A DNA stretch of 64,000 nucleotides from Chiloscyllium plagiosum. Its lineage: Eukaryota. Of the stretch, positions 8,484 to 64,000 are shown piece by piece; position 1 is the stretch's first letter; each line of letters opens with the position of its first letter. The notes beneath the pieces were generated by a model, which was not told where the DNA came from, did not search any database, and was given only the letters and a program-made list of their open reading frames with translations. A program made the position numbers and the translations under genes. The stretch is taken from positions 103,674,631 to 103,738,630 of the forward strand of contig NC_057717.1 in assembly GCF_004010195.1 (NCBI RefSeq). Reading direction: 5' to 3'.

Positions 8484-8765
8484 ATTAGATTAGATTCCCT
8501 ACAGTGCGGAAGCAGGCCCTTCGGCCCAACAAGTCCACACCGACCCTCCAAAGAGTAACCCACCCAGACCCATTTGCCTCTGACTAATGCAGCTAACACT
8601 ATGGGCAGTTTAGCATGGCCATTTCGCCTGACCTGCACATCTTTGGACTGTGGGAGGAAACCCACGCAGACACGGGGAGAATGTGCAAACTCCACACAGA
8701 CAGTCGCCCGAGGCTGGAATTGAACCTGGGACCCTGGTGCTGTGAGGCAGCTGTGCCACCCACTG
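8484..8765 (-). mobile_element. HE1-type SINE
   Basis: Reverse complement of the 1374-1696 element. Confidence 0.88.
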
Positions 8766-38105: not shown

Positions 38106-38841
38106 TTTTTGTCCTCCCTAGCCCCACACCCAGCCTTCAGTACTGAGCATAGGGAACTCAGTGAGGACTGACTATCGTGGGCTGGTCAGTGACTGCACTC
38201 TTATATGCTCTCTGTCTATTGTTAAAGGGATAGCACTGAGGCCATTCAGAGTAGGCGCAATGAACACCCTGGCCCCTGAGCAGCAATGGAAAGGGTTAAA
38301 CCTCTGAGTGCAGATGGTAAAGACAAAAGGCTTGTATTCCCCTGAGTGCAGAGGTGATCTAATTGCAGTGCTCAAGTTAATGAAAGAATTCAGTACAGAG
38401 AAACAACTTCCTCTAACTGGGCTGGGGAAGGGGTCCTGAACAAGGTTGCATGGGTTGGGGGGGGTGGGGGGTGTGGAGTGGGTTGGCTGAACCTCAAAAT
38501 TCAAGCCAGGTCACTCGAGGGAGCGATGTCAGGGTCAAATTAATGTTTCTAACCTGCAGTTGATATCGGTTTGTCAGGGCTGAGGAACCAAGAGTCAAAA
38601 GGAGTTGAGACAGCGAACAGTGGGACAGACGGGAGGGGCAGAGTGGTCTCAGCCTATTTTTACAGCCAGCCATCCCAGCGCAAGCCAGGGACTACAAAAG
38701 GAACCGATCGCTGTAACTGAGAGCAACTGTTTGTGGTCAGGTGGGGGCAGGGGGCACAGAGAGGGAAGAGGTGAGATCTGTCTGAATGCTTCCACATCTA
38801 TCCCGGCTGACGCGGCCGCCACGGAAGGTGCCGGAACCTAC

Positions 38842-39045
38842 CTGGGACATCTGAGGCCGCAGGTTGATCTCCTTGAGGTTGATGGAGTGAGGCCGGAGGT
38901 TGTTGAGGAGCTGACAGAGGAGGACGCCATCTCTCAGAGCCCAGGCCAAGTCGCAGACCTGAGCGTTGGCCCAGGTCACCCTGTGGTTGGGGGGCAACAC
39001 TTTACACTCGATCAGCCAGTTGGCACACTGCCGCCAGTTCTCCAT
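38842..39045 (-). CDS. VAV1: VAV-family guanine nucleotide exchange factor, first coding exon (N-terminal half of the calponin-homology domain); most likely VAV1, VAV3 not excluded
   Basis: Translates [68 protein letters not shown] (68 codons, 204 nt), the characteristic VAV N-terminus. ATG context is GCGATGG. The exon ends at a phase-0 donor CAG|GTAGGT at the conserved VAV exon-1 boundary. Family call is near certain; the paralogue call rests on WRQ, QVC, ALRD and PH residues (VAV1-like), while [10 protein letters not shown] is VAV3-like. Confidence 0.9.
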
Positions 39046-39189
39046 CGCCCAGGCGGCTCTGGCTGTGATCACACAGACAGAAGGGAGCAGAATTAAACTC
39101 AAAACGCAAACCACCCCCGGCCTGCCACCTGTTCAGCGCATTTCCCGTCTTGACTGTTTCCTCCAGAGAGTAGCTTGTTTTTTGAACCA

Positions 39190-43322: not shown

Positions 43323-46300
43323 TCAGGACCAGGAGTCAGAGTCCACACTGAGGCCGGGAGTCTGTGTCCACACTGAGGCCGGGGGTCTGTGTCCACACTG
43401 AGGCCGGGGGTCTGTGTCCACACTGAGGCCGGGAGTCAGAGTCCACACTAAGGCCGGGAGTTTGTGTCCACACTGAGGCCGGGGGTCTGTGTCCACACTG
43501 AGGCCGGGAGTCTGTGTCCACACTGAGGCCGGGGGTCTGTGTCCACACTGAGGCCAGGAGTTAGAGTCCACACTGAAGCCGGGAGTTAGAGTCCACACTA
43601 AGGCCGGGAGTTTGTGTCCACACTAAGGCCGGGAGTTTGTGTCCACACTGAGGCCAGGAGTCTGTGTCCACACTGAGGCCGGGGGTCTGTGTCCACACTG
43701 AGGCCGGGGGTCTGTGTCCACACTGAGGCCGGGAGTCTGCGTCCACACTGAGGCCGGGAGTCTGAGTCCACTCTGAGGCCGGGAGTCTGAGTACACACGA
43801 AGGCAGGGGGGCTGTGTCCACACTGGGGCCTGGAGTCAGAGTCCACACTGGGGCCGGGTGTTAGAGACCACACTGAGGCCGGGAGTTCGTGTCCACGCTG
43901 GGGCCGGGTGTCTCAGTCTACACTGAGGCCGGGAGTTAGAGACCACACTGAGGCCGGGAGTTAGAGTCACTGGTGCCGGGAGTCTGTGTCCACACTGAGG
44001 CCGGGAGTTAGAGTCCACACAGGGGCCTCGAGTCTGTTTCCACACTGAGGCCGGGAGTTAGAATCCAGATTGAGGCCAGGGGTCTGTGTCCACACTGAGG
44101 CCGGGAGTCTGCGTCCACACTGAGGCCGGGAGTTAGAGTCACTGGGGCCGGGAGTCTGTGTCCACACTGAGGCCGGGAGTCTGTTTCCACACTGAGGCCG
44201 GGAGTTAGAGTCACTGGGGCCGGGAGTCTGTGTCCACACTGAGGCCGGGAGTTAGAGTCCACACAGGGGCCTCAAGTCTGTTTCCACACTGAGGCCGGGA
44301 GTTGAATCCAGATTGAAGCCAGGGGTCTGTGTCCACACTGAGGCCGGGAGTCTGCGTCCACACTGAGGCCGGGAGTCTGAGTCCACACTAAGGCCAGGAG
44401 TCAGAGTCCACACTGAGGCCGGAATTACAGAGTCCACACTGAAGCCGGGAATTAGAGACCACACTGAGGCCGGGTGTAAGAGACCACACTGAGGCCGGGG
44501 GACTGTGCCCATACTGAGGCCAGGGGACTTTGTCCACACTGAGGCCAGGAGTTAGAGTCACTGGGGCCGGGAGTCTGTGTCCACACTGATTCCAAGAGTC
44601 TGTGTCCACACTGCCGGGAGTCTGTGTCCACACTCATTCCAAGAGTCTGTGTCCACACTGAGGCCGGGAGTTAGAATCCACACTGAGGCCGGCTGTCTGT
44701 GTCCACACTGAGGCCGGGTGTTAGAGACCACACTGGGGCCGCGAGTCTGTGTCCACACAGGGGCCGGCTGTCAGAGTCCACAATGAGGCCGGGAGTTAGA
44801 GACCACTCAGAGGCCAGGAGGTAAAGACCACGCCGTGATCGGGGGTCTGCGTCCACACGGAGGCCGGGAGTCTGCGTCCACACGGAGGCCGGGAGTTCGA
44901 GACCACGCAGAGGCCGGGGGTCTGTGTCCACACGGAGGCCGGGGGTCTGAGTACACATGGAGGCCGGGGGTCTGTGTCCACACGGAGGCCGGGGGTCTGA
45001 GTACACATGGAGGCCAGGGGTCTGTGTCCACACTGGGGCCTGGAGTCAGAGTCCACACTGGGGCTGGGAGTCAGAGACCACACTGAGGCTGGGAGTCTGT
45101 GACCACACTGAGGCCTGGAGTCAGAGTCCACTCTGAGGCCAGGAATTAGAAGCCACACTGAGGCCAGGAGTTAGAGACCACATTCAGGTTGGGAGGTAGA
45201 GACCACACTTAGGCCGGGAGATAGAGTCCACACGGAGGCCGGGAGATAGAGTCCACACGGAGGACGGGAGGTAGAGTCCACACTGAGGCTGGGAGTTAGA
45301 GACCACACTGAGGCCGGGGGACTGTGCCCATACTGAGGCCAGGGGACTTTGTCCACACTGAGGCCGGGAATTAGAGTCCACAATGAGGCCGGGAGTTAGA
45401 GTCACTGGGCCGGGAGTCTGTGTCCACACTGATTCCAAGAGTCTGTGTCCACACTGAGGCCGGGAGTCAGAGTCCACACTGAGGCCGGGGGTCTGTGTCC
45501 ACACTGAGGCCGGGAGTCTGAGTCCATACTAAGGCCGGGAGTCAGAGTCCACACTGAGGCCGGGAGGTTGAGTCCACACTAAGGCCAGGAGTCAGAACAT
45601 GAGGCCGGAATTAGAGTCCACACTGAGGCCGGAATTAGAGTCCACACTGAGGCCGGGAATTAGAGACCACACTGCGGCCGGGAATTAGAGACCACACTGA
45701 GGCCGGGGGACTGTGCCCATACTGAGGCCAGGGGACTTTGTCCACACTGAGGCCGGGAGTAGGAGTCCACACTGAGGCCGGACGTTAGACTCCACACTGA
45801 GGCTGAGAGTTAGTGTCCACACTGAGGCCGGGAGTCTCAGTCCATGCTGGGGCCGGGAGTTAGAGACCACACTGAGGCTGGGAGTTAGAGACCACACTGA
45901 GGCTGGGAGTTAGAGTCCACACTGAGGCTGGGAGTTCGAGTCCACACTGAGGCCGGAAGTCTGTGTCTACACTGAGGCCGGGAGTCTGTGTCCACACTGA
46001 GGCCGGGAGTCTGAGTCCACACTGAGGCCGAGAGTCCGTGTCCACACTGAGGCCGGGAGTCTGAGTCCATGCTGAGGCCGGGAGTTTGTGTCCACACTGA
46101 GGCCAGGAGTCTGTGTCCACACTGAGGCCGGGAGTCAGAGTCCACACTGAAGTCGGGAGTCAGAGTCCACACTGAGGCCGGGAGTCAGAGTCGACACTGA
46201 GGCCGGGAGTCAGAACATGAGGCCGGAATTAGAGTCCACACTGAGGCCGGAATTAGAGTCCACACTGAGGCCGGGAATTAGAGAGTCCACACTGAAGCCG

Positions 46301-49300
46301 GGAATTAGAGACCACACTGTGGCCGGGTAGTAAGAGACCACACTGAGGCCGAGAGTCAGAGTCCACACTGAGGCCGGGGGTCTGTGTCCACACTGAGGCC
46401 GGGAGTCTGAGTCCACACTGAGGCCGGGAGGTTGAGTCCACACTAAGGCCAGGAATTAGAGAGTCCACACTGAAGCCGGGAATTAGAGACCACACTGTGG
46501 CCGGGTAGTAAGAGACCACACTGAGGCCGGGGGACTGTGCCCATACTGAGGCCAGGGGACTTTGTCCACACTGAGGCCGGGAGTAAGAGTCCACACTGAG
46601 GCCGGAGGTTAGACTCCACACTGAGGCTGAGAGTTAGTGTCCACACTGGGGCCAGGAATCTCAGTCCATGCTGGGGCCGGGAGTTAGAGACCACTCTGAG
46701 GCTGGGAGTTAGAGTCCACACTGAGGCCAGGAGTTAGAGTCCACACTGAGGCTGGGAGTTAGAGTCCACACTGAGGCCGGGAGTCAGAGTCCACACTGAG
46801 GCCGGGAGTCAGAGTCCACACTGAGGCCGGAAGTCTGTGTCCACACTGAGGCCAGGAGTTAGAGTCCACACAGGGGCCTCGAGTCTGTTTCCACACTGAG
46901 GCCGGGAGTTAGAGTCCAGATTGAGGCCAGGGGTCTGTGTCCACACTGAGGCCGGGAGTTAGAGTCCAGATTGAGGCCAGGGGTCTGTGTCCACACTGAG
47001 GCCGGGAGTCTGCGTCCACACTGAGGCCGGGATTCTGTGTCCACACTGAGGCCGGGTGTCTGTGTCCACACTGAGGCCGGGAGTTAGAGTCCACACTGAG
47101 GCTGGGAGTTAGAGTCCACTCAGGGGCCTCGAGTCTGTTTCCACACTGAGGCCGGGAGTTAGAATCCACACAGGGGCCTCGAGTCTGTTTCCACACTGAG
47201 GCCGGGAGTTAGAATCCAGATTGAGGCCAGGGGTCTGTGTCCACACTGAGGCCGGGTGTCTGCGTCCACACTGAGGCCGGGAGTTAGAGTCACTGGGGCC
47301 GGGAGTCTGTGTCCACACTGAGGCCATGAGTTAGAGTCCACACAGGGGCCTCTAGTCTGTTTCCACACTGAGGCCGGGAGTTAGAGTCACTGGGGCCGGG
47401 AGTCTGTGTCCACACTGAGGCCGGGAGTTAGAATCCAGATTGAGGCCAGGGGTCTGTGTCCACACTGAGGCCGGGAGTCTGCGTCCACACTGAGGCTGGG
47501 AGTCTGAGTCCACACTAAGGCCGGGAGTCAGAGTCCACACTAAGGCCGGAATTAGAGAGTCCACACTGAAGCCGGGAATTAGAGACCACACTTAGGCCGG
47601 GTGTAAGAGACCACACTGAGGCCGGGGGACTGTGCCCATACTAAGGCCAGGGGACTTTGTCCACACTGAGGCCAGGAGTTAGAGTCACTGTGGCCGGGAG
47701 TCTGCGTCCACACTGAGGCCGAGAGTTAGAGTCACTGGGGCTGGGAGTCTGTGTCCACACTGATTCCAAGAGTCTGTGTCCACACTGAGGCCGGGGGTCT
47801 GTGTCCACACTGAGGCCGGGAGTCTGAGTCCATGCTGAGGCCGGGAGTCTGAGTCCACACTGAGGCTGGGAGTTTGTGTCCACACTGAGGCCAGGAGTCT
47901 GTGTCCACACTGAGGCCGGGAGTCAGAGTCCACACTGAGGTCGGGAGTCAGAGTCCACACTGTGGCCGAGAGTTAGAGTCACTGGGGCTGGGAGTCTGTG
48001 TCCACACTGATTCCAAGAGTCTGTGTCCACACTGAGGCCGGGGGTCTGTGTCCACACTGAGGCCGGGGGTCTGTGTCCACACTGAGGCCGGGGTCTGTGT
48101 CCACACTGAGACCTGGAATTAGAGTCCACACTGAGGCCGGGAGTCTGTGTCCACACTGAGTCCGAGAGTCTGTGTCCACACGGAGGCCGGGAGTTAGAGT
48201 CCACACAGGGGCCTCGTGTCTGTGTCCATGCTGAGGCCAACAGACTGTGTCCACACTGAGGCTGGGAGTTAGGGTCACTGGGGCCGGGGGTCTGTGTCCG
48301 CACTGAGGCCGGGAGTTAGAGTCACTGGGGCCGGGAGACTGTGTCCACACTGAGTCCGAGAGTCTGTGTCCACACGGAGGCCGGGAGTTAGAGTCCACAC
48401 AGGGGCCTCGTGTCTGTGTCCACACTGAGGCCAACAGACTGTGTCCACACTGAGGCCGGGAGTCAGAGTCCACACTGAGGCTGGGGAGTCTGTGTCCACA
48501 CTGATTCCAAGAGTCAGAGTCCACACTGAGGCCGGGAGTCAGAGTCCACACTGAGGCCGGGAGTCTGTGTCCACACCTGATTCCAAGAGTCAGAGTCCAC
48601 ACTGAGGCCGGGAGTCNNNNNNNNNNNNNNNNNNNNNNNNNNNNNNNNNNNNNNNNNNNNNNNNNNNNNNNNNNNNNNNNNNNNNNNNNNNNNNNNNNNN
48701 NNNNNNNNNNNNNNNNNNNNNNNNNNNNNNNNNNNNNNNNNNNNNNNNNNNNNNNNNNNNNNNNNNNNNNNNNNNNNNNNNNNNNNNNNNNNNNNNNNNN
48801 NNNNNNNNNNNNNNNNNNNNNNNNNNNNNNNNNNNNNNNNNNNNNNNNNNNNNNNNNNNNNNGCCGGAATTAGAGTCCACACTGAGGCCGGGAATTAGAG
48901 AGTCCACACTGAAGCCGGGAATTAGAGACCACACTGTGGCCGGGGGACTGTGCCCATACTGAGGCCAGGGGACTTTGTCCACACTGAGGCCGGGAGTAAG
49001 AGTCCACACTGAGGCTGGACGTTAGACTCCACACTGAGGCTGAGAGTTAGTGTCCACACTGGGGCCGGGAGTCTCAGTCCATGCTGGGGCCGGGAGTTAG
49101 AGACCACACTGAGGCTGGGAGTTCGAGTCCACGCTGAGGCTTGGAGTTAGAGTCCACACTGAGGCCAGAAGTCTGTGTCTACACTGAGGCCGGAAGTCTG
49201 TGTCCACACTGAGGCCAGGAGTCTGTGTCCACACTGAGGCCAGGAGTCTGTGTCCACACTGAGGCCGGGGGTCAGAGTCCACACTGAGGCCGGGAATCCG

Positions 49301-50830
49301 TGTCCACACTGAGGCCGGGATTCTGTGTCCACACTGAGGCCGGGATTCTGTGTCCACACTGAGGCCGGGAGTCAGAGTCCACACTGAGGCCGGCTGTCAG
49401 AGTCCACACTGAGGCCAGGAGTTAGAGTCCACACAGGGGCCTCGAGTCTATGTCCACACTGAGGCCGGGAGTTAGAATCCAGATTGAGGCCGGGGGTCTG
49501 TGTCCACACTGAGGCCGGGATTCTGTGTCCACACTGAGGCCGGGAGTCAGAGTCCACACAGAGGCCGGGAGTCAGAGTCCACACCGGGGCCGGCTGTCAG
49601 AGTCCACACTGAGGCCGGGAGTTAGAGACCACACAGAGGCCAGGAGGTAAAGACCACGCGGAGGCCGAGGGTCTGAGTACACACGAAGGCAGGGGGTCTG
49701 TGTCCACACTGGGGCCGGGTGTTAGAGACCACACTGAGGCCGGGAGTTAGAGTCACTGGGGCCGAGAGTCTGTGTCCACACTGAGGCCGGGAGTTAGAGT
49801 CCACACAGGGGCCTCGAGTCTGTTTCCACACTGAGGCTGGGAGTTAGAATCCAGATTGAGGCCAGGGGTCTGTGTCCACTCTGAGGCCGGGAGTCAGAGT
49901 CCACACTGAGGCCGGGAGTCAGAGTCCACACTAAGGCCGGGAGTCAGAGTCCACACTGAGGCCGGGAGGTTGAGTCCACACTAAGACCAGGAGTCAGAAC
50001 ATGAGGCCGGAATTAGAGTCCACACTGAGGCCGGAATTAGAGTCCACACTGAGGCGGGGAATTAGGCCGGGGGACTGTGCCCATACTGAGGCCAGGGGAC
50101 TTTGTCCACACTGAGGCCGGGAGTAAGAGTCCACACTGAGGCTGGACGTTAGACTCCACACTGAGGCTGAGAGTTAGTGTCCACACTGGGGCCGGGAGTT
50201 AGTGTCCACAGTGGGGCCAGGAATCTCAGTCCACACTGGGGCCAGGAATCTCAGTCCATGCTGGGGCCGGGAGTTAGAGACCACACTGAGGCTGGGAGTT
50301 CGAGTCCACACTGAGGCCGGAAGTCTGTGTCTACACTGAGGCCGGGAGTCTGTGTCCACACTGAGGCCGGGAGTCCGTGTCCACACTGAGGCCGGGAGTC
50401 AGAGTCCACACTGAGGCCGGGAGTCAGAGTCCATGCTGAGGCCGGGAGTCTGAGTCCACACTGAGGCCGGGAGTCTGTGTCCACACTGAGGCCAGGAGTC
50501 TGTGTCCACACTGAGGCCGGGAGTCCGTGTCCACACTGAGGCCGGGAGTCAGAGTCCACACTGAGGCCGGGAGTTAGAGACCACACTGAGGCCAGGAGTC
50601 TGAGTCCATGCTGAGGCCGGGAGTTAGAGACCACGCTGAGGCCGGGAGTCTGAGTCCACACTGAGGCCGGGAGTCTGAGTCCATGCTGAGGCCGGGAGTC
50701 TGAGTCCACGCTGAGGCCCAGAGTCAGAGTCCACACTGAGGCCGGGAGCCTGAGTCCACACTGAGGCCGGGAGTCTGAGTCCACACTGAGGCCGGGAGTC
50801 TGAGTCCATGCTGAGGCCGGGAGTCCACAC
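43323..50830. repeat. ~7.5-kb satellite/minisatellite, 25-bp unit (GTCCACACTGAGGCCGGGAGTCTGT and variants), roughly 300 units, with an internal gap
   Basis: Tandem periodicity is directly visible. It accounts for all the WTQTPGLSVDTDSRPQCG-type ORFs. Confidence 0.97.
48617..48862. other. Assembly gap (N) inside the satellite
   Basis: Run of N. Confidence 1.
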
Positions 50831-52734
50831 TGGCTTTCTCCCCCAGCCGTTGCCGACTGGAGGTAAAATGGAAAAGAATAAAATTGCGAACCGAGAGAGA
50901 AATAATCCAAATCATAAATAAAAGAAACTGAGATGGAACAGATGAGCTCTGGTCCAACCTCCCTATGGAGGCACTCCAAGGTTCTGTCAGTGTTTGCTCG
51001 ATCAACCCTTGGCTATATCGAGCACTCCTCAAATCTCTTGACCCAGCGGCAGCCTTCGATGTGGTTGACTGCCCCACCCTTTCCGAGGCCTCTCTGCTGG
51101 CATCCCACTGGGCTGGGACTGTTTGTGGTATCCTGGATGTAAGCTATCTGATCTCCTCTGGCCCCAGGCTGTGGGTGTTGGCTGAATTCCCAATCAATCT
51201 AATTCTGATGGTCGCGCAAACCATCACACAGCCTCGAGTCACTGAGGTCGATAGCACGGAGAAAGACCCTTCGGCCCATCGTGTCAATTTTAGGGTGAAA
51301 GGTTTGAGGGGGTTTCAAGGGAGCAGTTTTTTGCCCAGAGGGTGGTGGGGGGGTTGTCTGTAATGCTCTCCCTGGGAGGGTAGTTAAGACAGGAAACTTC
51401 TCAATGTCACAACATTCAGGACTATGGGCCTAGTTCAGGAAAGTGGGATTCATGTCATGTGGGTTTAGTAGTATGGGCTTGATGGGCCAAAGGTCCTCTT
51501 CTGTGCCTAATGAATCTCTGAGTGTGCACCAACCGAAAACCACCTAACTATTCCAGCTATACACGTGTTAGCCTTGGCATCACAAGGGTCCAAAGTCATT
51601 GCCAGAGAAGACTGCGAAAGGTCAGGTCATTGAGTATCTTTCAGACAGAGATAGAGAGGTTCTTGAGTATCAAGAGGATCAAAGGGTTACAGGAGAAAGT
51701 AGGAGAATGGGGCTGAGAAACTTTGTCAGCCTTGACCCGATGGGCTGAATGGTGTAATTTCTGCTCCGATGGATTATGGTTTAATGCACATCTAAATACT
51801 TGTCCAAACTGTCGCCCACCCCCACAGGTAGTGGGTTCCGGATTGTCAGCATTCTCTGAGTGAAAACATGCCCCTTGCACCCTGTGAAAACCTCCTGTCC
51901 CTTCCCTTCAACCTATGGGAGACGGTATTTCCTGTCAATGCCCCTTGACCAGAAGACCCTCAGTCTATAGCCTCCCCTCCTGCTTTTGCACCATTATCTC
52001 TGGTGTCACCCAAAGCTCTATCGCTATCCCCTTCCAATCTACCTGCAGCTTTCTCTGGCATTGGTTGCAGGCCTCGTACGTAGGCCGAGCAGCTTGACCT
52101 CACTCACACCTGTCATTTCCATCCTTGGCTGTAAAAAGGCGCCATATAAATGCAAGTCCTTCCTTCAAAGGCTTCCCCTCGGTGACCATTCGTCCAAATC
52201 CTTGTCCGGCTCCAATCTGTGGTGGGACACTTGAATGACCCAATGCTACCTCTCAACAACCCACCCCTCCTTCCCCCCACCGCACCGCCCCGTGAAAAGC
52301 TCAAGTTATTCTGCGGAGCTCAAGTAGTTCACGCTTGTGGGTTTTTCACCCCTTGACTTTTTAAATCTATTTTCTTTGAGCACTGTGTCATATGCAGGGG
52401 TATCTGACTCGCTGAAGAGCTAACAACAAGAATGTGCATTGATGTAGCACTTTTAACAGAAAGTGGGGGGAACTGAGTTGTAGAACCCAGGTATCAAGCT
52501 GGGAAACTCTGTGCACTACCGAGGGAGAGCTGCACTGTTGGCAGTTCTATCTTTCAGGTGCGGTGACCTTTCAACGGCTGGTGAAAAACCCCACGGCCTC
52601 ATTTTGAAGAGGAACAGAGTTCTGGCTCATTTTTACCCATGGCTGGGGATGAGAAGGGGATCACCTGATCGTCATCTCATTGCCGTTCATGGGAGCTTGC
52701 TGTGTGCAAATAGGGTGGCACCTTTCCTACGTGG

Positions 52735-53300
52735 CAGATTGAGTTTAATTTGGATAAACGCGAGGTATTGCATTTGGTAAAAACATACCAGGGCAGGAGT
52801 TACACAATCGGTGCTAAGGTCCGGGTAGTGCTGTAAAACAGAGAGACCTCAGGAACATAATTCTTTGAAGTTTGCGTCACAGGTACGCAGGGTGGTTAAG
52901 AAGGCGTTTAGCGCTTAGCCTTCATTGCTCAGATTTTTGAGTGTAGGAGTTGGGACATCAAGTTGAGGACATGAGTGAGGCCTCTTCTGGAGCACTGTGT
53001 ACAGGAAGGATATCATTAAATTAGAGAGGGTTCAGAAAAGATTTACCAGGATGGAGGGTTTGACGTATGCAAATAATCTGGAAAGGCCTGGTCCTGTTTC
53101 CAGGAGCTGAGGAGGTTAAATTGTGAACTCACTGAGGTTTATAAAATCATGAGGGGCACAGAGAAGGTGAATGACAGAGGTCTTTTCCCTAATGTGTGGG
53201 AGTTCAAAACCAGGGGGCATTATTTTTAAGATGAGGGGGAGAAAGATTTAAAAAGGATATGAGGGCCGACTTTGTTTACATAGAGAGTGGTTTGTATGTG
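52735..53300 (+). mobile_element. CR1 LINE fragment
   Basis: Degenerate VVKKAF, LERVQKRFTRM and EVYKIMRG segments. Confidence 0.8.
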
Positions 53301-53539
53301 GAATTAAATTGAATTAGCTTTATCTTCACTCATAGTCGTGTGTGTACAGTGAAATGTTTATCAGTGACCACTTACAGCACCATCTTATGTACAGAGTACT
53401 AGGTATAATCCTTAGTTACAGAATAGAGGATTTAGGAAAATGGTTACAGCACAGCTATACACAGTATGATCAGAGGTCAGAAACACAAGAAGCAAAGTTA
53501 AAAAGACAAAGCATCACGTTCTCTCTGCAGCAGACCAAC

Positions 53540-53843
53540 ACAGCGGGCCTCCTGACTGCTGTTACACTGGGCCACAGTCCAGGTTCGATCCAACCCTCGG
53601 GTGTCTGTGTGGGGTTTGCACATTCGCCCCGTGGGTTTCCTCCCACAGTCCAAAGATGTGCAGCTTAGGTGGATTGGCCGTGCTACATTATGCCGTAGTG
53701 TCCAGCCTATTAACACAGGAAATGCAGAGTGGGTCTAGGTCGGTGTGGACTAGATGGGCCGAATGGCCTGCTTCCACACTACAGGGATCGAAGGCTGGAA
53801 TCGAACCCGGGTACCCAGCGCCGTGAGGGAGCAGTGCTAGCCA
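53540..53843. mobile_element. Degenerate HE1-type SINE (+) abutting an inverted HE1 tRNA head (-)
   Basis: V-domain and tail at 53600-53790; GGCTGGAATCGAACCCGGG...CCACTGAGCCACCG at 53793-53843. Confidence 0.8.
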
Positions 53844-54097
53844 CTGAGCCACCGCATCGCCCCCTTGGTGAGTGCCTTGTGCAGAAGTGAAGAGATTGTG
53901 AGGGAATTCCAGATGTGGAGTGGTGGGCGGTTATGTCCCAGCAGCTATCCAAGTCCTGCAGCTCATACGCGGCACATCCAGCCCGACAGCCTCACCTTGG
54001 TGAAGTGGGAACTGTGCCCGTGATTGTCTGACTCCGGCCAGGTGATGCCCTGACACGTCCCTGGTTGCCCTTTAAGAATGGCTTGCCTCACCCCTGC

Positions 54098-54550
54098 GTG
54101 ACTCAGCAGAAAAAGCAAAACCGTTGCGAGGGGGAATGACGGCCCGTAAAACGAGCAGGCTGTGCCTCCAGAACCCTCCTTACCTCTGTCTCCCTGAGCG
54201 ATCGCTCCCGATGACTGAGTGTAGAGAGTAGGGCAGCCTGCAGACAATGGAGTAAATGGTCAGGCAATAGCTGGAACTCCATGGGTCCTGGGTGCCACTC
54301 CCTGGGCTAAGGCACTACAGTGACTCAGCATTCCTCTTCGCCCCGAAGGGATTCTGCACTGTCACGGGCTCGTTCATTGTCCCCGAACACAACAGTGACT
54401 CAGCATTCCTCACGCATTGTCACTTGGACACGAATGAAAAGGCAGGAATTCTGCACTGTCATGGTTAGTTCATTCACTCGGTGCCCAGTAATGAGTCAAC
54501 TAACTGATTGTGACAGATTTCCCTCCCGGGCTAGAGGCACATGACAGTGC
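54098..54550. promoter_or_regulatory. Cluster of antioxidant response elements (NRF2/NF-E2-sMAF sites, RTGACnnnGC)
   Basis: GTGACTCAGCA at 54098, 54320 and 54395 (+). GTGACAGTGCA at 54355-54365, GTGACAATGCG at 54413-54423 and ATGACAGTGCA at 54452-54462 (-). ATGACAGTGC at 54541 (+). AP-1 site TGAGTCA at 54492. GCLM is an established NRF2 target. Confidence 0.85.
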
Positions 54551-54676
54551 TGGCTATCGGTTGCACGCTCAGTTCATTGACTGAGTGCCCAGCAGTGAGT
54601 CCCACCCACTGGAGCGGACTGTTCAGTCCTTAAACTCTGTGCTTTCTTCTGGCTGGTTCCTCGCCTGTATTTCCCC

Positions 54677-54730
54677 TGACGTGGGTGTGCCTCAGTGATG
54701 CCTTAGAGCAGGAATTCCCTGTTTATAAAC
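54677..54730 (+). promoter_or_regulatory. Putative core promoter of the GCLM-like gene (TATA box with CRE-like, CACCC and NF-kB-like motifs)
   Basis: TATAAA at 54724-54729, ~135 bp upstream of the ATG with no intervening ATG; TGACGTG at 54677; GGGTGTG at ~54683; GGAATTCCC at 54711. Confidence 0.6.
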
Positions 54731-54861
54731 CGATTAGAGGAGAGGAATTACTTGTGGCTCTACTAGTGTTTGAGGAACTCTGTTAGAATCAACACAGCTG
54801 AACTCACTCAGATAAAAGCCAGCACCTCCAGCACTTTCCAGAAAGCACCTTGCCGGCAAAC

Positions 54862-54892
54862 ATGACTGAAGACAAGAACGAAATCTTTAATC
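54862..54892 (+). CDS. GCLM: GCLM-like, start of first coding exon (MTEDKNEIFN...), truncated by an assembly gap
   Basis: First ATG downstream of the TATA box at 54724, in good Kozak context (GCAAACATGA), and directly upstream of the exon-2 equivalent. The conserved exon-1 motif (HLQTGNLLNWG) is not visible and would fall in the N run. A candidate donor CAG|GTTTGT lies just after the gap at 55406/55407. Confidence 0.6.
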
Positions 54893-55392
54893 NNNNNNNN
54901 NNNNNNNNNNNNNNNNNNNNNNNNNNNNNNNNNNNNNNNNNNNNNNNNNNNNNNNNNNNNNNNNNNNNNNNNNNNNNNNNNNNNNNNNNNNNNNNNNNNN
55001 NNNNNNNNNNNNNNNNNNNNNNNNNNNNNNNNNNNNNNNNNNNNNNNNNNNNNNNNNNNNNNNNNNNNNNNNNNNNNNNNNNNNNNNNNNNNNNNNNNNN
55101 NNNNNNNNNNNNNNNNNNNNNNNNNNNNNNNNNNNNNNNNNNNNNNNNNNNNNNNNNNNNNNNNNNNNNNNNNNNNNNNNNNNNNNNNNNNNNNNNNNNN
55201 NNNNNNNNNNNNNNNNNNNNNNNNNNNNNNNNNNNNNNNNNNNNNNNNNNNNNNNNNNNNNNNNNNNNNNNNNNNNNNNNNNNNNNNNNNNNNNNNNNNN
55301 NNNNNNNNNNNNNNNNNNNNNNNNNNNNNNNNNNNNNNNNNNNNNNNNNNNNNNNNNNNNNNNNNNNNNNNNNNNNNNNNNNNNNNNNNNNN
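54893..55392. other. Assembly gap (500 N) within GCLM-like exon 1
   Basis: Run of N. Confidence 1.
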
Positions 55393-55663
55393 GTCTATCA
55401 CACCAGGTTTGTGTTATTGACAGAGCTCTGGGCTCCACTTCCTAATTCACTCTATCTCTTTCTCCTTACTTACTTGCCCTCCTATTGACCAAGATTCCAA
55501 TTATATGTCCCCATATCTCGCAAAGGGTCTCCACAAGCCAGCGGTGCTTGATAATGCCTCCTGGGACACTGAACATGCTATATAAATGCAGGTTGATGTT
55601 GTTACTCTGGGGTGGCCCATCTCTCCACCTTTCGCTACCAAGCCCCTCTGATCTCTTTTCCAG

Positions 55664-55735
55664 GTCCTGGATTGTCTCAAGGCTGCTTTGTGTGACTGGG
55701 GTTCAAAGTGCAACTCTGATCGACCGGAAGGGAAG
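55664..55735 (+). CDS. GCLM: GCLM-like exon 2
   Basis: Polypyrimidine tract and TTTTCCAG| acceptor; VLDCLKAALCDWGSKCNSDRPEGK; |GTGAGT donor; phase 0-0. Aligns by eye with mammalian GCLM LHDCIQKTLNEWSSQINPDLVR. Confidence 0.85.
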
Positions 55736-55859
55736 GTGAGTCTTCATCCTTGGCTACCATGCATCCCAGGCTCTGCTCAGAACTGCAGTGACCTCTCGGG
55801 ACGCTGTGTTCCGATAAGACGCAATGTCAACTTAGGAGAAATCAATCTGCCCTCGCATT

Positions 55860-56165
55860 TTAGATTAGATTAGATTCCCTACAGTGTGGAAACAGGCCCT
55901 TCGGCCCAATAAGTCCACACCGACCCTCTGAAGACTAACCCACCCAGACCCATTTCCCTCTGACTAATGCATCTAACAGTACGGGCAATTTAGCATGGCC
56001 ACTTCACCTGACCTACACATCATTGGATTGTGGGAGGAAACCGGAGCATCCGGAGGAAACCCACGCAGACACGGGGAGAATGTGCAAACTCCACGCAGAC
56101 AGTCCCCCAAGGCTGGAATTGAACCTGGGTCCCTGGTGCTGTGAGACAGCAGTGCTAACCACTGA
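55860..56165 (-). mobile_element. HE1-type SINE in GCLM-like intron 2
   Basis: Reverse-complement match with a (TTAGA)n tail. Confidence 0.88.
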
Positions 56166-56526
56166 CCTTCCCACCTCAACACCATAATCGCTGCCCCCAC
56201 TTTAGTGTCATTGCCAATTGTTTATTGACCCTCATTGGGATGGGTCATTATTGGCAAAGCTAACGTTAGTAATCCTTCCTTCCTGCGATTCACACCTCAT
56301 CGTTTACTCCCTTACTTGGACAAATAAGCTGGAGCCTCTGGCTGGGAATATCTCAGGCTTTGTACCTGAGAGATCTTCATCTTTTGGGTCCCCCCCCATA
56401 TCTGAGGAAGGATGTTCTGGCAAAGGAGGGAGTGCAGAGAAGGTTAACCAGACTGGATTCCTGGGATCAGGATTAGAGTGGTGCTGGAAAAGCTCAGCAG
56501 GTGAGGCAGCATCCGGGGAGCAGGAA

Positions 56527-56562
56527 AATCGACGTTTCGGGCATAAGCCCTTCATCAGGAAT
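56527..56562 (-). ncRNA. Minimal hammerhead ribozyme motif (Penelope-derived), in GCLM-like intron 2
   Basis: Minus strand reads ATTC-CTGATGA-A-GGGC-TTAT-GCCC-GAAAC-GTC-GATT; core intact, one mismatch in stem I. Confidence 0.65.
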
Positions 56563-57963
56563 GGGATGGCAGGACTGACATAAGAAAACAGACTGGATCA
56601 GTTTAGGATTCTATTTGCCGGAGTCTTGAAGATTGAGGTGGGGGTGATCTCATAGAAACCTGTGAAATGCTAACAGGCCAAGACAGGGGGAACATGGGAA
56701 GGATGTTCCCAATGACCATGTAGAGTCAAGAACCAGCAGGTCATGGTCTGAGGATACAGGGTAGGCCATTTGGGACTGAGCTGAGAACTGTCTTCGCCCA
56801 GCGAGAGGGGGGAGGGGGGGGTGGTCTGAGGCTTTCTCTGCTACAGGAAGCAATTGAAATCAAAGCACTGAAGATTTGTGAGAAGGAGTTAGATATAGTT
56901 CTGAGGGCTAAAGGAAGAAAGGAGAACAGGGGACTGAGTTGGATGGTTAGCCATGATCCTGATGAATGGCACACCAGGTTTGAAGGGCCGGTTCTTGTTT
57001 TCAGTGTTTAATCTCTCCCGATCATAGATCTCCTCTGTTTCCCCAGTGGATCGCTGCCAGTCTCAGGCCCACAGCTGGGAAAATTGAATCAGCCACGATC
57101 CTATTGTATGCCTGGGAGGGCTTACCACAACTAGACACAGGAGGGGTGGACCTGAGAGAAGTCATTTCCCCTTGACCCTTGACCCTGCCTTCTCCACCCT
57201 CTGATCATCAGCTCTCACGCTGATTGGTGGAGCAATCGATCACTGAGCATCCCTTGACGACATTTCATTGGCTCACCCCTAGCCAGCATTGAGGGTCCAC
57301 CAGCCTTCCCTGATTGGATAGTGGACCTGTTCCCTGGCCTTGGATTGACTGAGATGTTGTAAAGAGACCAGAGGCACCTGCAGTATTTGGCTTTCACTCC
57401 CACCCCTCTGGGGCTCACGTTCCACCTCTCCATGGCGTTGGCTGTTTCTTGGGTATATTTTTAATCTCTAAGCCACCTCATCCTCCCACCCGGTTTAATG
57501 CCGTCTGCAAGCTCAGATAGCTGGGCTCCAAGCACTGAGCGCTGTGCTAAGATCACCAAAGTCCCACTCCCTCATTAGAGAGAGGGGTAACTGTTTAAAC
57601 CTGGGGCTCACCACACCTTAGGGAAGGGGTGAGGTTGAGATGACAGGATGTTCACAGCCACCCCAGCAGACATGGGCATTGAACCTATGCTGTCAGAGTC
57701 ACTTTGACCATCACAATCCAGTCATCCAGCCAACTGAGCTAACCGATCAATCACTGCCCATCGCTCACAAAAAGGCCTGTTTATTTCTAAGCCTCGTTTC
57801 CTTGTCTATCTCTAACCATGAGTAAGAGAAAGACTAAAGATAAGAATTCAAAAGCATTCGATCTCTTTATTTGGTTGGTTGTTATTCTGTTTAACATCGG
57901 TTTAGTTATTAACACTGCCTTTTTATTTATCTCCCGCGTCTCTCTACTGACCAGTTTCACCAG

Positions 57964-58048
57964 GCGTTACCCGAGCACCTGGTCTGTAACCTGATTCAAC
58001 CGACAGAGAGGATTGACCCTGATGAGAGAGAGGATATCCGGATATCAG
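57964..58048 (+). CDS. GCLM: GCLM-like exon 3
   Basis: CAG| acceptor; ALPEHLVCNLIQPTERIDPDEREDIRIS plus G; |GTAGGT donor; 85 nt, phase 0-1. Matches GCLM ...EKINPDEREEMKVS. An in-frame alternative acceptor 9 nt upstream (CCAG ending 57954) would add FHQ. Confidence 0.9.
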
Positions 58049-58505
58049 GTAGGTGCTCCATCAGGGAGAGGCACTGTCCGCCTAGTTACAGAGCTCGCGA
58101 ATCAAGGGCTGCTATTGACAGGGACAAGAGGCATTCCATCCACTGAGCTAACCATTAACACTGGGCAAAGGTGAAACACATCAGTCCTCCATCTTCAGGA
58201 GGAGTGGCACAGTTACCATCAGAAATGGGAACAGGATGAGGCCATTCAGCCCCTCAGGCCTGCTCTGCCATTCAATAGGATCACCGCTGATCGTGCCCTT
58301 TCCCTGGAACCCTGGATTCCCTGAATGGTCAGGAATCTATCTCATCCTTAAATATACAGAAGGGCTCTGCCCCCACCGCTCCCTGTGGCAAGGTGTTCCA
58401 AAGTCTCCCAGCCCTCAGAGAGAAGATGTTCCTCCTCAGCTCAGGCTTACATTGGTGCCCCGTGATTCTGAGACTGTGCCCCAATCCGTGACTCTCCCTA
58501 TCACT

Positions 58506-59109
58506 GTCACCTCCTCCAGCCCCTACATCCCCTCCCTATCTCTGTAAACCTCCTCCAGCCTCTACACCCCCTCCCTATCTCTGTAACCTTCCCCAGCACC
58601 TACACCCCCTCCCTATCTCTGTAACCTTCCCCAGCACCTACACCCCCTCCCTATCTCTGTAACCTTCCCCAGCACCTACACCCCCTCCCTATCTCTGTAA
58701 CCTTCCCCAGCACCTACACCCCCTCCCTATCTCTGTAACCTTCCCCAGCACCTACACCCCCTCCCTATCTCTGTAACCTTCCCCAGCACCTACACCCCCT
58801 CCCTATCTCTGTAACCTTCCCCAGCACCTACACCCCCTCCCTATCTCTGTAACCTTCCCCAGCACCTACACCCCCTCCCTATCTCTGTAACCTTCCCCAG
58901 CACCTACACCCCCTCCCTATCTCTGTAACCTTCCCCAGCACCTACACCCCCTCCCTATCTCTGTAACCTTCCCCAGCACCTACACCCCCTCCCTATCTCT
59001 GTAACCTTCCCCAGCACCTACACCCCCTCCCTATCTCTGTAATCTCCTCCAGCCCCTACACCTCCTCCCTATCTCTGTCACCTCCTCCAGCCCCTACACC
59101 CCCTCCCTA
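58506..59109 (+). repeat. 38-bp minisatellite (TACACCCCCTCCCTATCTCTGTAACCTTCCCCAGCACC) in GCLM-like intron 3
   Basis: Near-identical units recur every 38 bp (58563, 58601, 58639...) and run into an N gap. Degenerate units (CCCTATCTCTGTAACCTCCTCCAGCCCCTAC, PYLCNLLQPY) resemble an L2-type LINE C-terminus. Confidence 0.93.
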
Positions 59110-59900
59110 NNNNNNNNNNNNNNNNNNNNNNNNNNNNNNNNNNNNNNNNNNNNNNNNNNNNNNNNNNNNNNNNNNNNNNNNNNNNNNNNNNNNNNNNNNN
59201 NNNNNNNNNNNNNNNNNNNNNNNNNNNNNNNNNNNNNNNNNNNNNNNNNNNNNNNNNNNNNNNNNNNNNNNNNNNNNNNNNNNNNNNNNNNNNNNNNNNN
59301 NNNNNNNNNNNNNNNNNNNNNNNNNNNNNNNNNNNNNNNNNNNNNNNNNNNNNNNNNNNNNNNNNNNNNNNNNNNNNNNNNNNNNNNNNNNNNNNNNNNN
59401 NNNNNNNNNNNNNNNNNNNNNNNNNNNNNNNNNNNNNNNNNNNNNNNNNNNNNNNNNNNNNNNNNNNNNNNNNNNNNNNNNNNNNNNNNNNNNNNNNNNN
59501 NNNNNNNNNNNNNNNNNNNNNNNNNNNNNNNNNNNNNNNNNNNNNNNNNNNNNNNNNNNNNNNNNNNNNNNNNNNNNNNNNNNNNNNNNNNNNNNNNNNN
59601 NNNNNNNNNNNNNNNNNNNNNNNNNNNNNNNNNNNNNNNNNNNNNNNNNNNNNNNNNNNNNNNNNNNNNNNNNNNNNNNNNNNNNNNNNNNNNNNNNNNN
59701 NNNNNNNNNNNNNNNNNNNNNNNNNNNNNNNNNNNNNNNNNNNNNNNNNNNNNNNNNNNNNNNNNNNNNNNNNNNNNNNNNNNNNNNNNNNNNNNNNNNN
59801 NNNNNNNNNNNNNNNNNNNNNNNNNNNNNNNNNNNNNNNNNNNNNNNNNNNNNNNNNNNNNNNNNNNNNNNNNNNNNNNNNNNNNNNNNNNNNNNNNNNN
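59110..59900. other. Assembly gap (N) after the 38-bp minisatellite
   Basis: Run of N. Confidence 1.
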
Positions 59901-60365
59901 CTCATAATTTTGTAAACCTCTATAAGGTCACCCCTCAGCCTCCGACGCTCCAGGGAAAACAGCCCCAGCCTGTCCAGCCTCTCCCTATAGCTCAAACCCT
60001 CCAACCCTGGCAACATCCTTGTAAATCTTTTCTGAACCCTTTCAAGTTTCACAGCATCTTTCCGATAGGAAGGAGACCAGAATTGCACGCAATATTCCAA
60101 TAGTGGCCTAACCAATGTCCTGTACAGCCACAACATGACCTCCCAATTCCTGTGCTCAATACTCTGACCAATAAAGGAAAGCATACCAAACGCCTTCTTC
60201 ACTATCCTATCTACCTGCGACTCCACTGCCTGCACTCCAAGGTCTCTTTGTTCAGCAACACTCCCTAGGACTTTACCATTAAGTGTATAAGTCCTGCTCA
60301 GATTTGCCTTTCCACAATGGAGCACCTTCCAATTTTCTAAATTAAACTCCATCTGGCACTCCTCA
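59901..60365 (-). mobile_element. CR1 (HER1-like) LINE fragment
   Basis: LYRTLVRPLLEYCVQFWSPSYRKDAVKLERVQKRFTRMLPG. Confidence 0.92.
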
Positions 60366-60503
60366 AAGATAGGGAGGGGGTGTAGGGCCTGGAGGAGGTT
60401 ACAGAGATAGAGAGGAGTGCAGGGCTGGAGGGGTTGACTGAGATAGGAATCTGTTTACTTTAATTGCTTGTACTTCCTGACCTCATATTTCTCCTTCCCA
60501 CAG

Positions 60504-60560
60504 CCAAACTGTTCATCTGTCAATCTGACTTAAGGACTGTTAAGGAGGCGGTGATGTGTG
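60504..60560 (+). CDS. GCLM: GCLM-like exon 4
   Basis: CTCCTTCCCACAG| acceptor; (A)KLFICQSDLRTVKEAVMC; |GTAAGT donor; phase 1-1. The AKLFI motif is typical of GCLM. Confidence 0.92.
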
Positions 60561-61627: not shown

Positions 61628-61950
61628 TCATAGAATCCCTACAGTGTGCAAACAGGCCCTTTAGCCCAACGGGTCCACACCGACCCTCCAAAGAGTAACC
61701 CAGCCATTCCCCTACCCTTACCCCTGACTAATGCACCGAACCTGAACACAATGGGCAATTTAGCATGGCCAATTCACCTGACCTGCACATCTTTGGATTG
61801 TGGGAGGAAACCGGAGCACCCGGAGGAAACCCACGCAGACACGGGGAGAATGTGCAAACTCCACACAGACAGTCGCCCGAGACTGGAATCGAACCCAGGT
61901 TCCTGGTGCTGTGAGACAGCAGTGCTAACCACTGAGCCACCATGCCGCAC
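61628..61950 (-). mobile_element. HE1-type SINE in GCLM-like intron 4
   Basis: Reverse-complement, full length; explains most of ORF 61646-62359. Confidence 0.88.
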
Positions 61951-62040: not shown

Positions 62041-62243
62041 CCTGCTCGGAGCTCGGGGTCAGTCAGCTGGATTCGGTCATTCTCTCAGTTGTGGCCCTGT
62101 CGGAGGAGAACCGGCCAACTCTGGAGGACCTGATGCCTTACTGGAAGGAACTGGAGGTCTTGGTCCAAGGGCAGAAGGTTGCATCCATCGGAGTCTCAGA
62201 CTTGGACCGGGAAGTGCTGGAGGCCTTGTGCCAACACGCTCAG
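62041..62243 (+). CDS. GCLM: GCLM-like exon 5 (aldo-keto-reductase-like fold)
   Basis: TTTCCAATTACAG| acceptor; (A)CSELGVSQLDSVILSVVALSEENRPTLEDLMPYWKELEVLVQGQKVASIGVSDLDREVLEALCQHAQ; |GTATGC donor; 203 nt, phase 1-0. Carries GCLM motifs LGVxQLDSVI, PYWxELE and IGxSDLD. Exons 2-5 join into one open frame. Confidence 0.95.
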
Positions 62244-62779
62244 GTATGCTCCCCACCCCTACACCCCACACACACCCCTCCCCACTCACCCCGGTTTCTC
62301 TTCCGTCACCATTCTCCCGAAGCCTTGTTGCATTTACAGCTCCCCAATTCCTTACCTAGGTGGATATACTCCATCACCGGTGAGGACTTCAGTCAAAGCT
62401 CAGCATGTGTCCCTTTCCAGAGTGTAAACTCTCGCCTGAGCATCCCCTGCATTACTGAGGGACTGCTGCACTGCCAGATATGCTGGGTTTCTGATGAGGT
62501 GTGAAATCCAGGACCTCCTTGGCCTGAGTAATGATGCCACTGGGAGATGAACAGCCACATTCACCTTGACCAGTGTTTGTTCCTCTCTCAACATCGCCAA
62601 CAGAGTGAGTGATCACATCACCGTCTGCTGCTGCACTGTCCCTTCATTAAACATCGAGGATTCCAGAATGACAGACAGAGCCACCCACGTCAGGCTGACT
62701 CCAGGTTCAATCCCTGATCTGACCGCACTGTTCATCAGGTGCAATGGCAGCCGCAGAACCAAAACAGCTTAAAATCGTT

Positions 62780-63765
62780 GTGTCTCTGTGTGTGAGTGAG
62801 TGTATGAATGTGTGTGACTGTCTGTGTGAGAGAGTGTGTGTGCGCACATGTGTGAGTGTATGTATGTGTATGCATGTGTGCCTCACTGTACATATACGTG
62901 TCTATGTGGGCAAGTGTGTGTACGTGTGTATGTATGTGTGTCTGTGCATTCCTGTATGTACATGCAGATGCATATGTGTCCATGTGTATGTATCAGTGAG
63001 TCTTGTGCATGCATGTGTGTCTGTGCATGCATATATGTGTGTGCAAGTGTGTAGAGTGTTGTGTTTGGGAGTGTACAGACAGTGGTGTGTGATTGTATAG
63101 TGGGTGTGCACATGTATGTGAATGTGTGTCAGCAAGTGTGTAAAGTGTTGTGTAAGTGTTGGTGTGTGTGGGTGCATGTGTATGCATGCCTGTGTGAGTG
63201 ATTGTGTGCTTGTGCGTGAGAGTGCGTGTGTGTCTGTGTGTATGAGTGTGGATGTGTGAGAGAGTGTGCATGCATCTGTGTGTGTGAGGACTGTTTGTGT
63301 GTTTGCACGAGTGTGTGTGTATATTTGTATATGTGTGTGTATATGCATGTGTGTCTGACTATGCATATGCCTGTCTATGTGGGTATGTGTGTGCACATAT
63401 GCGTGTGTGTCTGTGCATGCATTTGTATATGTTCGTGTGTATGTGTCGACGAGTCTGTGTGCATGTATGTGTGTCTGTGTATGCATATATGTATGTGCGT
63501 TTATGTAGTGTGCATACAAGTGTGTGTGTGCAAGTGTGCAGAGTGTGTTGTGTGTGGGAATGTGTAGTGTGTGTGTGAACAAGTGGGGTGAGAATGTGTA
63601 GTGCTTGTGCACATGTATATGAGTGTGTGTGTGTGTATGTGACCAAGTATGTAAAGCTTGTGTGAGTGTCTGTGTTTGTGTGAGCGTGTGACAGAGAGAG
63701 GGTGTGTGTGTGTGTGTGAGAAAGAGAGAGAGAGAGTGTGTGTGTATGTATGTGTGTGAGTATGT
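62780..63765. repeat. ~1-kb degenerate (GT)n microsatellite in GCLM-like intron 5
   Basis: Directly visible; source of the HT-rich and VC-rich ORFs. Confidence 0.95.
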
Positions 63766-64000
63766 AGTGTTGATGTGGACTGAGATTCAGTGTAACACAT
63801 GTTGTAATTGAATAAGCCTGCATATTCTCTCTTATCAAGTCCCCACTCGGAGCAGGAAATATTGAATCCATCCACACCCTCTGTCAACAGGAAGGGTGTG
63901 AAGGCAATCAGAGAGGAGCAGATAAATATGAGAGAAATAAATCCGCAGAGAGAGAGAGAGAGGATAGAGACTGAGTTAACATTCCTCACGGAAAAATTCT

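Follow-up and report, generated by a model that had tools for sequence, protein, structure and literature searches.

The window analyzed here is a 64,000-nucleotide stretch from the shark Chiloscyllium plagiosum (contig NC_057717.1, positions 103,674,631 to 103,738,630), in which seven cores of the antioxidant response element (ARE) are clustered in front of a TATA box and a gene resembling GCLM, the modifier subunit of glutamate-cysteine ligase. With a probability of about 0.65, the segment 54098-54550 is a homotypic ARE cluster for heterodimers of cap'n'collar basic leucine zipper (CNC-bZIP) and small MAF (sMAF) proteins of the NRF2 type, which would drive the TATA promoter of an elasmobranch-specific GCLM paralogue. 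The array is a candidate for a strong promoter that is probably stress-inducible. Glutamate-cysteine ligase is the limiting enzyme of glutathione synthesis, and its output is set by the modifier subunit. Clustered AREs are a known regulatory device; the array is an unusually dense instance of it, positioned at a paralogue that is undescribed in the literature searched. The motifs, their clustering and duplication structure, the TATA box, the ATG and the gene identity are read from the sequence. Motif statistics, the anatomy of the array and the biology of the gene family lead us to infer the binding factor, a response to stress, the site at which transcription starts and an effect of the protein on GCLC.

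A dense array of ARE cores upstream of a TATA box

The motif RTGACnnnGC was scanned on both strands of the whole window. It was observed 16 times, as compared with 14.5 +/- 3.7 occurrences expected by shuffling, which shows no overall enrichment. Seven of the 16 matches are located within the 453 bp of the array (54098-54550), and the densest 460-bp stretch outside it contains two. At the background rate, the Poisson probability of finding at least seven sites is 1.1e-12 per 460-bp stretch, with approximately 136 such stretches in the window. In 2000 dinucleotide-preserving shuffles of the 711 bp between 54050 and 54760, the motif occurred 0.23 times on average and four times at most, and no shuffled sequence reached seven. 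When duplicated site pairs are counted once, five sites remain, which is above this maximum. Words deviating from the ARE by one mismatch show a mild excess (6 versus 2.9 expected). The fuller form RTGACnnnGCA is present at five of the seven array sites and occurs only seven times in the whole window. A purine precedes TGAC in all seven TGACnnnGC words of the cluster; in the rest of the window this holds for 9 of 30. The three GTGACTCAGCA sites of the array account for all three occurrences of TGACTCAGCA in the 64 kb.

An earlier note on this DNA had described seven RTGACnnnGC sites on both strands, including three perfect ARE/AP-1 sites and two minus-strand sites with a ...GTGCAGAAT flank, followed by an AP-1 site, a TATA box and an ATG; all of these were recovered at the expected places. 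The 10-nt core GTGACTCAGC is found on the plus strand at 54098, 54320 and 54395, and in all three cases it forms the perfect site GTGACTCAGCA. The first of these (54098-54108) has an embedded TPA response element (TRE) and is followed by GAAAAA. The second (54320-54330) belongs to repeat unit U1 and lies in a 24-nt block that is 96% identical to 54388-54411, and the third (54395-54405) is part of unit U2. On the minus strand, the core GTGACAGTGC at 54356 is contained in GTGACAGTGCA (54355-54365, unit U1), which lacks a TRE core and is followed by GAAT; its surrounding block of 21 nt is 90% identical to a copy at 54444-54464. The minus-strand site GTGACAATGC (54414-54423), followed by G, is positioned in a 12-nt stretch of U2 that has no equivalent in U1. 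The core ATGACAGTGC occurs twice, namely at 54453 on the minus strand within ATGACAGTGCA (54452-54462, unit U2), which is again followed by GAAT, and on the plus strand at 54541-54550 in unit U3, where it is followed by T. The flank GCAGAAT is that of the sites at 54356 and 54453. Five of the seven sites are packed into 143 bp, and the whole array is located 183-626 bp 5' of the TATA box. An AP-1/TRE heptamer, TGAGTCA, at 54492-54498 lacks the GC dinucleotide. In the alignment it falls where U1 and U2 have an ARE, from which it has probably decayed.

Direct repeats and their alignment revealed three degenerate tandem units on the plus strand, U1 (54310-54384), U2 (54385-54481) and U3 (54482-54585), and a doubtful fourth unit that extends to about 54690. 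The direct repeats are spaced by 75, 96, 97 and 104 bp, and the mean column identity of the unit alignment is 50%. Each good unit harbors one plus-strand and one minus-strand site. U1 and U2 both start with CAC(T/A)ACAGTGACTCAGCATTCCTC (24 nt, 96% identical) and share a second block, AGG(G/A)ATTCTGCACTGTCA(C/T)GG (21 nt, 90% identical). The spacer between the two blocks comprises 10 nt in U1 versus 32 nt in U2, and the extra stretch of U2 holds the site at 54414. In U3 the first position is occupied by the bare AP-1 heptamer AATGAGTCAAC at 54492, and the plus-strand site at 54541 aligns with the one-mismatch word ATGAAAAGGC of U2. This organization indicates that the array arose by degenerate tandem duplication of a two-site unit of 75-104 bp. 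The duplications are old, because Tandem Repeats Finder, applied to 53500-54893 with a score of at least 30, did not call the array and returned no rows, the units having diverged too far. The spacers differ in length and sequence between the units, and the site-bearing blocks are their best-kept parts. Well-kept site blocks next to decayed spacers are consistent with constraint on the sites, an impression gained from two good units.

The array is separate from the common short interspersed nuclear element (SINE) of the window. A tRNA-derived copy of this SINE at 53602-53860 forms the upstream bound of the promoter region and lies outside the array. In a blastn comparison of 53601-54892 with the window, the SINE produced more than 40 other matches; the part from 53900 to 54892 matched only itself, internal repeats and three chance-level segments (E 0.069-0.84). 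The earlier note had considered that the region might prove to be a high-copy repeat, but no other copy of the array exists within the 64-kb window. Neither Rfam models searched against 50000-58000 nor a search for the two-site module in metagenome contigs gave a match.

Direct reading of the sequence places the TATA box TATAAA at 54724-54729 on the plus strand. An initiator-like element, TTACTTG (54748-54754, plus strand), fits six of the seven positions of YYANWYY, the initiator consensus. A54750, which lies 26 bp past the first T of TATAAA, is the predicted start of transcription. The predicted 5' untranslated region (54750-54862, 113 nt) contains AGATAA at 54810 and no ATG upstream of the one at 54863. 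With a GC content of 0.53 and a CpG observed/expected ratio of 0.49, the promoter region does not form a CpG island. TATA-type non-CpG promoters are usually associated with inducible or tissue-restricted genes. On the plus strand, 35 bp 5' of the TATA box, the element TGACGTGGGTGTG (54677-54689) joins a cAMP response element (CRE) half-site with ACGTG core to a minus-strand CACCC box; as the window holds 128 RCGTG and 251 CACCC words, this element is weak evidence. Hypoxia response elements were also considered. Five RCGTG words occur in the 711 bp compared with approximately 1.5 expected, and this excess was judged too weak given the number of motifs tried.

The GCLM-like gene and its paralogue clade

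The putative coding sequence starts with MTEDKNEIFN (54863-54892, plus strand) in exon 1 and then enters a run of 500 N (54893-55392). The N-terminus agrees in 9 of 10 residues with that of the Hemiscyllium ocellatum protein (MTEDRNEIFN, P0001) and in 8 of 10 with that of Chiloscyllium punctatum (MTEDKNEISI, P0122). Four exons with AG/GT borders follow on the plus strand, namely exon 2 (55664-55735), exon 3 (57955-58048), exon 4 (60504-60560) and exon 5 (62041-62243), and further exons are located beyond the window. Joined together, exons 2-5 correspond to the start of the C. plagiosum protein model P0123, and all 145 of the 145 residues compared are identical. This 5'-partial model would be completed by the exon with the ATG at 54863, beside the run of N, and that run would have room for the approximately 31 residues by which exon 1 is short. 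With exon 5, the largest exon, as query, all proteins retrieved came from sharks and bore the name 'glutamate--cysteine ligase regulatory subunit-like', the top hit being that of H. ocellatum (99% identical). Relatives carry the domain PF00248. The interpretation in the earlier note is supported in part, namely by the array, the TATA box, the orthologue-like N-terminus and the GCLM-like exons on the same strand; its unusually strong switch for oxidative stress or hypoxia-reoxygenation is a conjecture. With respect to gene identity, the assignment to the GCLM family was upheld; the gene belongs to a paralogue clade separate from canonical GCLM.

A full-length search yielded two groups of proteins, GCLM-like and canonical GCLM, which are approximately 50% identical to each other. 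GCLM-like proteins are annotated in 16 elasmobranch species according to NCBI or UniRef names. They were found in sharks (Hemiscyllium, Rhincodon, Stegostoma, Heterodontus, Heptranchias and Pristiophorus), in rays (Pristis, Mobula, Hemitrygon and Narcine) and in skates, and in Heptranchias, Pristiophorus, Hemitrygon and Narcine they occur alongside canonical GCLM. No such paralogue of bony vertebrates was present among the proteins retrieved. A maximum-likelihood tree was calculated from 35 hand-picked sequences, comprising 13 of the 16 top hits and 22 canonical sequences spanning the vertebrates; three isoform or sister-species entries (P0002, P0004 and P0012) were omitted. The tree separates two groups, one of the 12 GCLM-like sequences (100/100) and one of the 23 canonical sequences (100/100), the latter including the GCLMs of cartilaginous fishes. 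As the tree was rooted at its midpoint only, it is compatible both with an old duplicate that was lost in bony vertebrates and with a fast-evolving elasmobranch duplicate. By sequence comparison, the gene is thus a member of an elasmobranch-wide GCLM paralogue clade that is distinct from canonical GCLM.

In skates, GCLM-like sequences are located on Logan contigs of 1.0-1.1 kb that contain the whole 285-aa frame. This mRNA-like size hints that the skate paralogue is transcribed. A search of sequencing runs listed no RNA run; four small runs labelled as another organism contained 0.23-0.24 of the sampled words and four runs 0.06-0.09, which speaks neither for nor against expression. The identity of approximately 50% to canonical GCLM suggests by analogy that the GCLM-like protein may act on GCLC. 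The literature search found no paper on an elasmobranch GCLM paralogue or on a Chiloscyllium glutamate-cysteine ligase.

Candidate binding factors and rival explanations

The ARE core is defined as TGACnnnGC and the site of MAF homodimers as TGCTGA(G/C)TCAGCA, and NRF2 binds as a heterodimer with sMAF proteins (PMC7761610). The extended ARE consensus is given as TMAnnRTGAYnnnGCRwwww, with a core that is better conserved than the extension (PMC6007815). Elements of NRF2/sMAF are also recognized by BACH1/sMAF (PMC9287733; PMC6007815), and GCLM is described as an established target of NRF2 and NRF1 (PMC3382959, PMC6007815). The palindromic MAF recognition element (MARE) TGCTGASTCAGCA has no match in the window, and the array sites carry only its half ...TCAGCA. 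Four of the seven sites lack a TRE core, and thus AP-1 alone cannot explain the array. The pattern of sites is therefore better matched by CNC/sMAF heterodimers than by MAF homodimers or AP-1.

The validated human Gclm ARE is TGACTCAGC at -312 and the NQO1 ARE is likewise TGACTCAGC (PMC6007815), and 'an ARE site' is mentioned for the human GCLm promoter in PMC3382959. The single ARE in these passages of the two sources agrees with the statement in the earlier note that mammalian GCLM has far fewer AREs. The shark promoter shares with its mammalian counterpart the TGACTCAGC 9-mer, which is present in three sites, as well as the gene family, the location in the proximal promoter and an AP-1 site nearby. 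It differs from the single ARE described there in that seven cores, distributed over both strands, share 453 bp, by its TATA box and by belonging to a paralogue. In HMOX1, the core of the E2 MARE is TGCTGAGTCA, where BACH1 and NRF2 take each other's place (PMC4096395). The HO-1 enhancers E1 and E2 hold 2 and 4 AREs, respectively; cooperative binding may sharpen the response of ARE clusters, and independent, graded binding is regarded as equally possible (PMC9287733). Like E1 and E2, the array is a homotypic cluster, and the TGCTGAGTCA-type core corresponds to three of its sites. However, the 2 + 4 sites of HMOX1 are situated in enhancers apart from the promoter and their binding has been shown, whereas the shark array is denser, with seven putative binding sites in the proximal promoter itself, and is tandem-duplicated. 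The NQO1 ARE has the same TGACTCAGC core with embedded AP-1 heptad, but each NQO1 entry in PMC6007815 lists one core. 'Multiple AREs' are mentioned for the NQO1 and HO-1 promoters in a passage of PMC9287733 that gives no number for NQO1.

Synthetic reporters, designed for strong inducible output, resemble the array in placing several AREs before a minimal TATA-type promoter, as in a minimal thymidine kinase (TK) promoter with multiple AREs (PMC6007815) or a 3x MARE construct (PMC4096395). These are engineered identical repeats, whereas the shark array is natural and combines mixed site types in both orientations with decayed spacers. Hypersensitive site 2 (HS2) of the beta-globin locus control region (LCR) contains two tandem NF-E2 sites together with GATA and CACCC partners. 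Tandem TGCTGAGTCA-type sites are common to both and are bound by CNC/sMAF in the LCR, but the GATA and CACCC words of the shark promoter occur at chance frequency.

Several observations weigh against an NRF2-type cluster at a GCLM-like gene. Core AREs are very common and most of them are unbound. For the human genome, about 2.4 million putative AREs are reported (PMC9287733). The 16-bp extended consensus TMAnnRTGAYnnnGCR fits only one of the seven sites (54452, minus strand). The sites at 54320 and 54395 and those at 54356 and 54453 are duplicate pairs, and the number seven overstates the independent events. The link between the ATG at 54863 and the gene consists of ten residues (tblastn E 0.25) and of position, as the remainder of exon 1 falls into the run of 500 N. 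The public model P0123 is 5'-partial and does not include exon 1; the ATG exon is absent from it because it begins inside intron 1, at 55652. Moreover, sequence alone cannot separate NRF2, NRF1, NRF3, NF-E2 p45 and BACH1.

The array might also be functionless, either as a by-product of local tandem duplication or as a low-copy mobile or satellite-like element that carries ARE-like words. Its sites are indeed located in degenerate tandem units, two of the seven are copies, and the window is dense in repeats (SINEs, a reverse-transcriptase fragment of a long interspersed nuclear element (LINE), and 25-bp and 38-bp tandem arrays). A functionless array is nevertheless unlikely, since the five sites left after collapsing the pairs exceed the maximum of four in 2000 shuffles, neither of the two clearly duplicated blocks includes the sites at 54098, 54414 and 54541, and within the units the blocks with sites are preserved best. 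No other array copy is present in the 64 kb and the array is unrelated to the nearby minisatellite. In addition, its position before the TATA box of a gene from an ARE-regulated family would be a striking coincidence.

Two further explanations assign the sites to other factors. Under tissue-specific or haem-linked control, NF-E2 p45/sMAF would activate the gene in blood cells, or BACH1/sMAF would keep it repressed as long as haem is low, in the manner of HMOX1 and the globin genes. Three sites read TGCTGAGTCA on the opposite strand, which is the core of the HMOX1 E2 MARE and is bound by BACH1 and NRF2 in a reciprocal manner (PMC4096395), and the same elements are recognized by BACH1/sMAF and NRF2/sMAF (PMC9287733; PMC6007815). 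The CACCC box at 54683 and the AGATAA at 54810, on which the earlier note had based an erythroid NF-E2 alternative, are both present, the former on the minus strand. However, CACCC occurs 251 times in the window (about every 250 bp) and WGATAR 106 times (about every 590 bp), so that one of each is expected by chance; the 711 bp contain four CACCC words versus approximately 2.9 expected. There is no WGATAR in 54050-54760, and the AGATAA sits 3' of the predicted start. Moreover, TGACAnTGC-type AREs without an NF-E2/TRE core make up four of the seven sites. With GATA and CACCC words at chance frequency, the erythroid alternative is weak despite the three NF-E2-type cores, and control by tissue or haem is considered quite unlikely. 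A promoter responsive to AP-1 (Jun/Fos) or ATF/CREB, in which the ARE-like flanks are incidental, is very improbable. It would account for four TGASTCA heptamers in the 711 bp, out of 14 in the window, and for the TGACGT half-CRE at 54677, and an AP-1 site of rat GCLm is reported to act in basal and tert-butylhydroquinone (tBHQ)-induced expression (PMC3382959). Yet three of the four heptamers have the full ARE flank (GC at +3, R at -1), and four more sites keep TGACnnnGC without a TRE. The sole TRE that lacks the GC flank (54492) aligns with an ARE position and looks decayed.

For the preferred reading, an NRF2-type ARE cluster, the following sequence of events is proposed. Oxidative or electrophilic stress would stabilize NRF2, and NRF2/sMAF dimers would fill up to seven sites 200-650 bp 5' of the start, from which they would displace BACH1/sMAF or sMAF dimers that act as repressors. 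The bound activators would drive initiation approximately 26 bp past TATAAA, near 54750, and the transcript would be translated from the ATG at 54863 into the GCLM-like protein. By analogy with GCLM, this protein would raise the activity of GCLC and thereby increase glutathione synthesis. The array itself originated by tandem duplication of the 75-104-bp unit with one site per strand, after which the site blocks were kept and the spacers decayed.

If this holds true, cartilaginous fishes own a second modifier gene that is wired to NRF2 far beyond the single ARE reported for mammalian GCLM. The locus would then represent a stress-response promoter strengthened by tandem duplication of binding sites, and a case of a duplicated gene taking over the inducible share of a function. 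It would also be a candidate for the locus behind the tolerance of oxidative stress in bamboo and epaulette sharks, and provide a compact natural ARE array usable as a reporter. Hemiscylliid sharks are known for their tolerance of hypoxia and reoxygenation. A more tentative possibility is that sharks and rays retained or gained a second GCL modifier subunit missing from bony vertebrates, and that the hemiscylliid GCLM-like protein is a dedicated stress-inducible isoform under a duplication-built super-ARE promoter, with a housekeeping GCLM on the one hand and a switch-like, NRF2/BACH1-gated GCLM-like on the other. As part of this possibility, the array might be the densest natural ARE cluster found described, with seven sites versus 2 and 4 in HO-1 E1/E2. 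Should the reading fail, the array would be no more than a conspicuous group of motifs in intergenic DNA rich in repeats.

Repeats and neighboring features

A minisatellite with a 25-bp unit extends over 7.5 kb from 43332 to 50825 (approximately 301 copies, 78% matches), with a run of 246 N (48617-48862) inside it. The upstream gene and the GCLM-like promoter are separated by a GC-rich block (about 60% GC) that consists mostly of this minisatellite. Located 3.3 kb upstream, it was considered as a relative of the promoter units and rejected, as no 18-mer of its unit matched 53900-54892 with up to three errors. The tRNA-derived SINE family recurs throughout the window in both orientations, for example at 1375-1577, 8496-8765 and 61635-61941, and is also present inside introns of the GCLM-like gene. 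Intron 3 of this gene harbors a 38-bp tandem repeat (58494-59109, 16 copies, 96% identity) that runs into a stretch of 791 N (59110-59900), and pieces of reverse-transcriptase-like open reading frames (ORFs) are found on the minus strand near 59900-60450. A long low-complexity region at about 62700-63900, 3' of exon 5, contains ORFs rich in Cys/Val on one strand and in His/Thr on the other, a pattern suggestive of TG/CA-rich simple sequence.

An entropy filter reduced the 222 ORFs of at least 75 aa to 212, and 205 of these were scanned with Pfam. An exon on the minus strand (38740-39132) encodes a CAMSAP-type calponin-homology domain (PF11971 E 9e-13; PF00307 E 1e-9). The upstream neighbor is therefore arranged head-to-head with the GCLM-like gene, at a distance of about 15 kb, and the scans revealed no gene and no other match above its family cut-off between this exon and the array. 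A plus-strand reverse-transcriptase fragment at 14279-14755 (PF00078 E 9e-20) is probably a decayed LINE.

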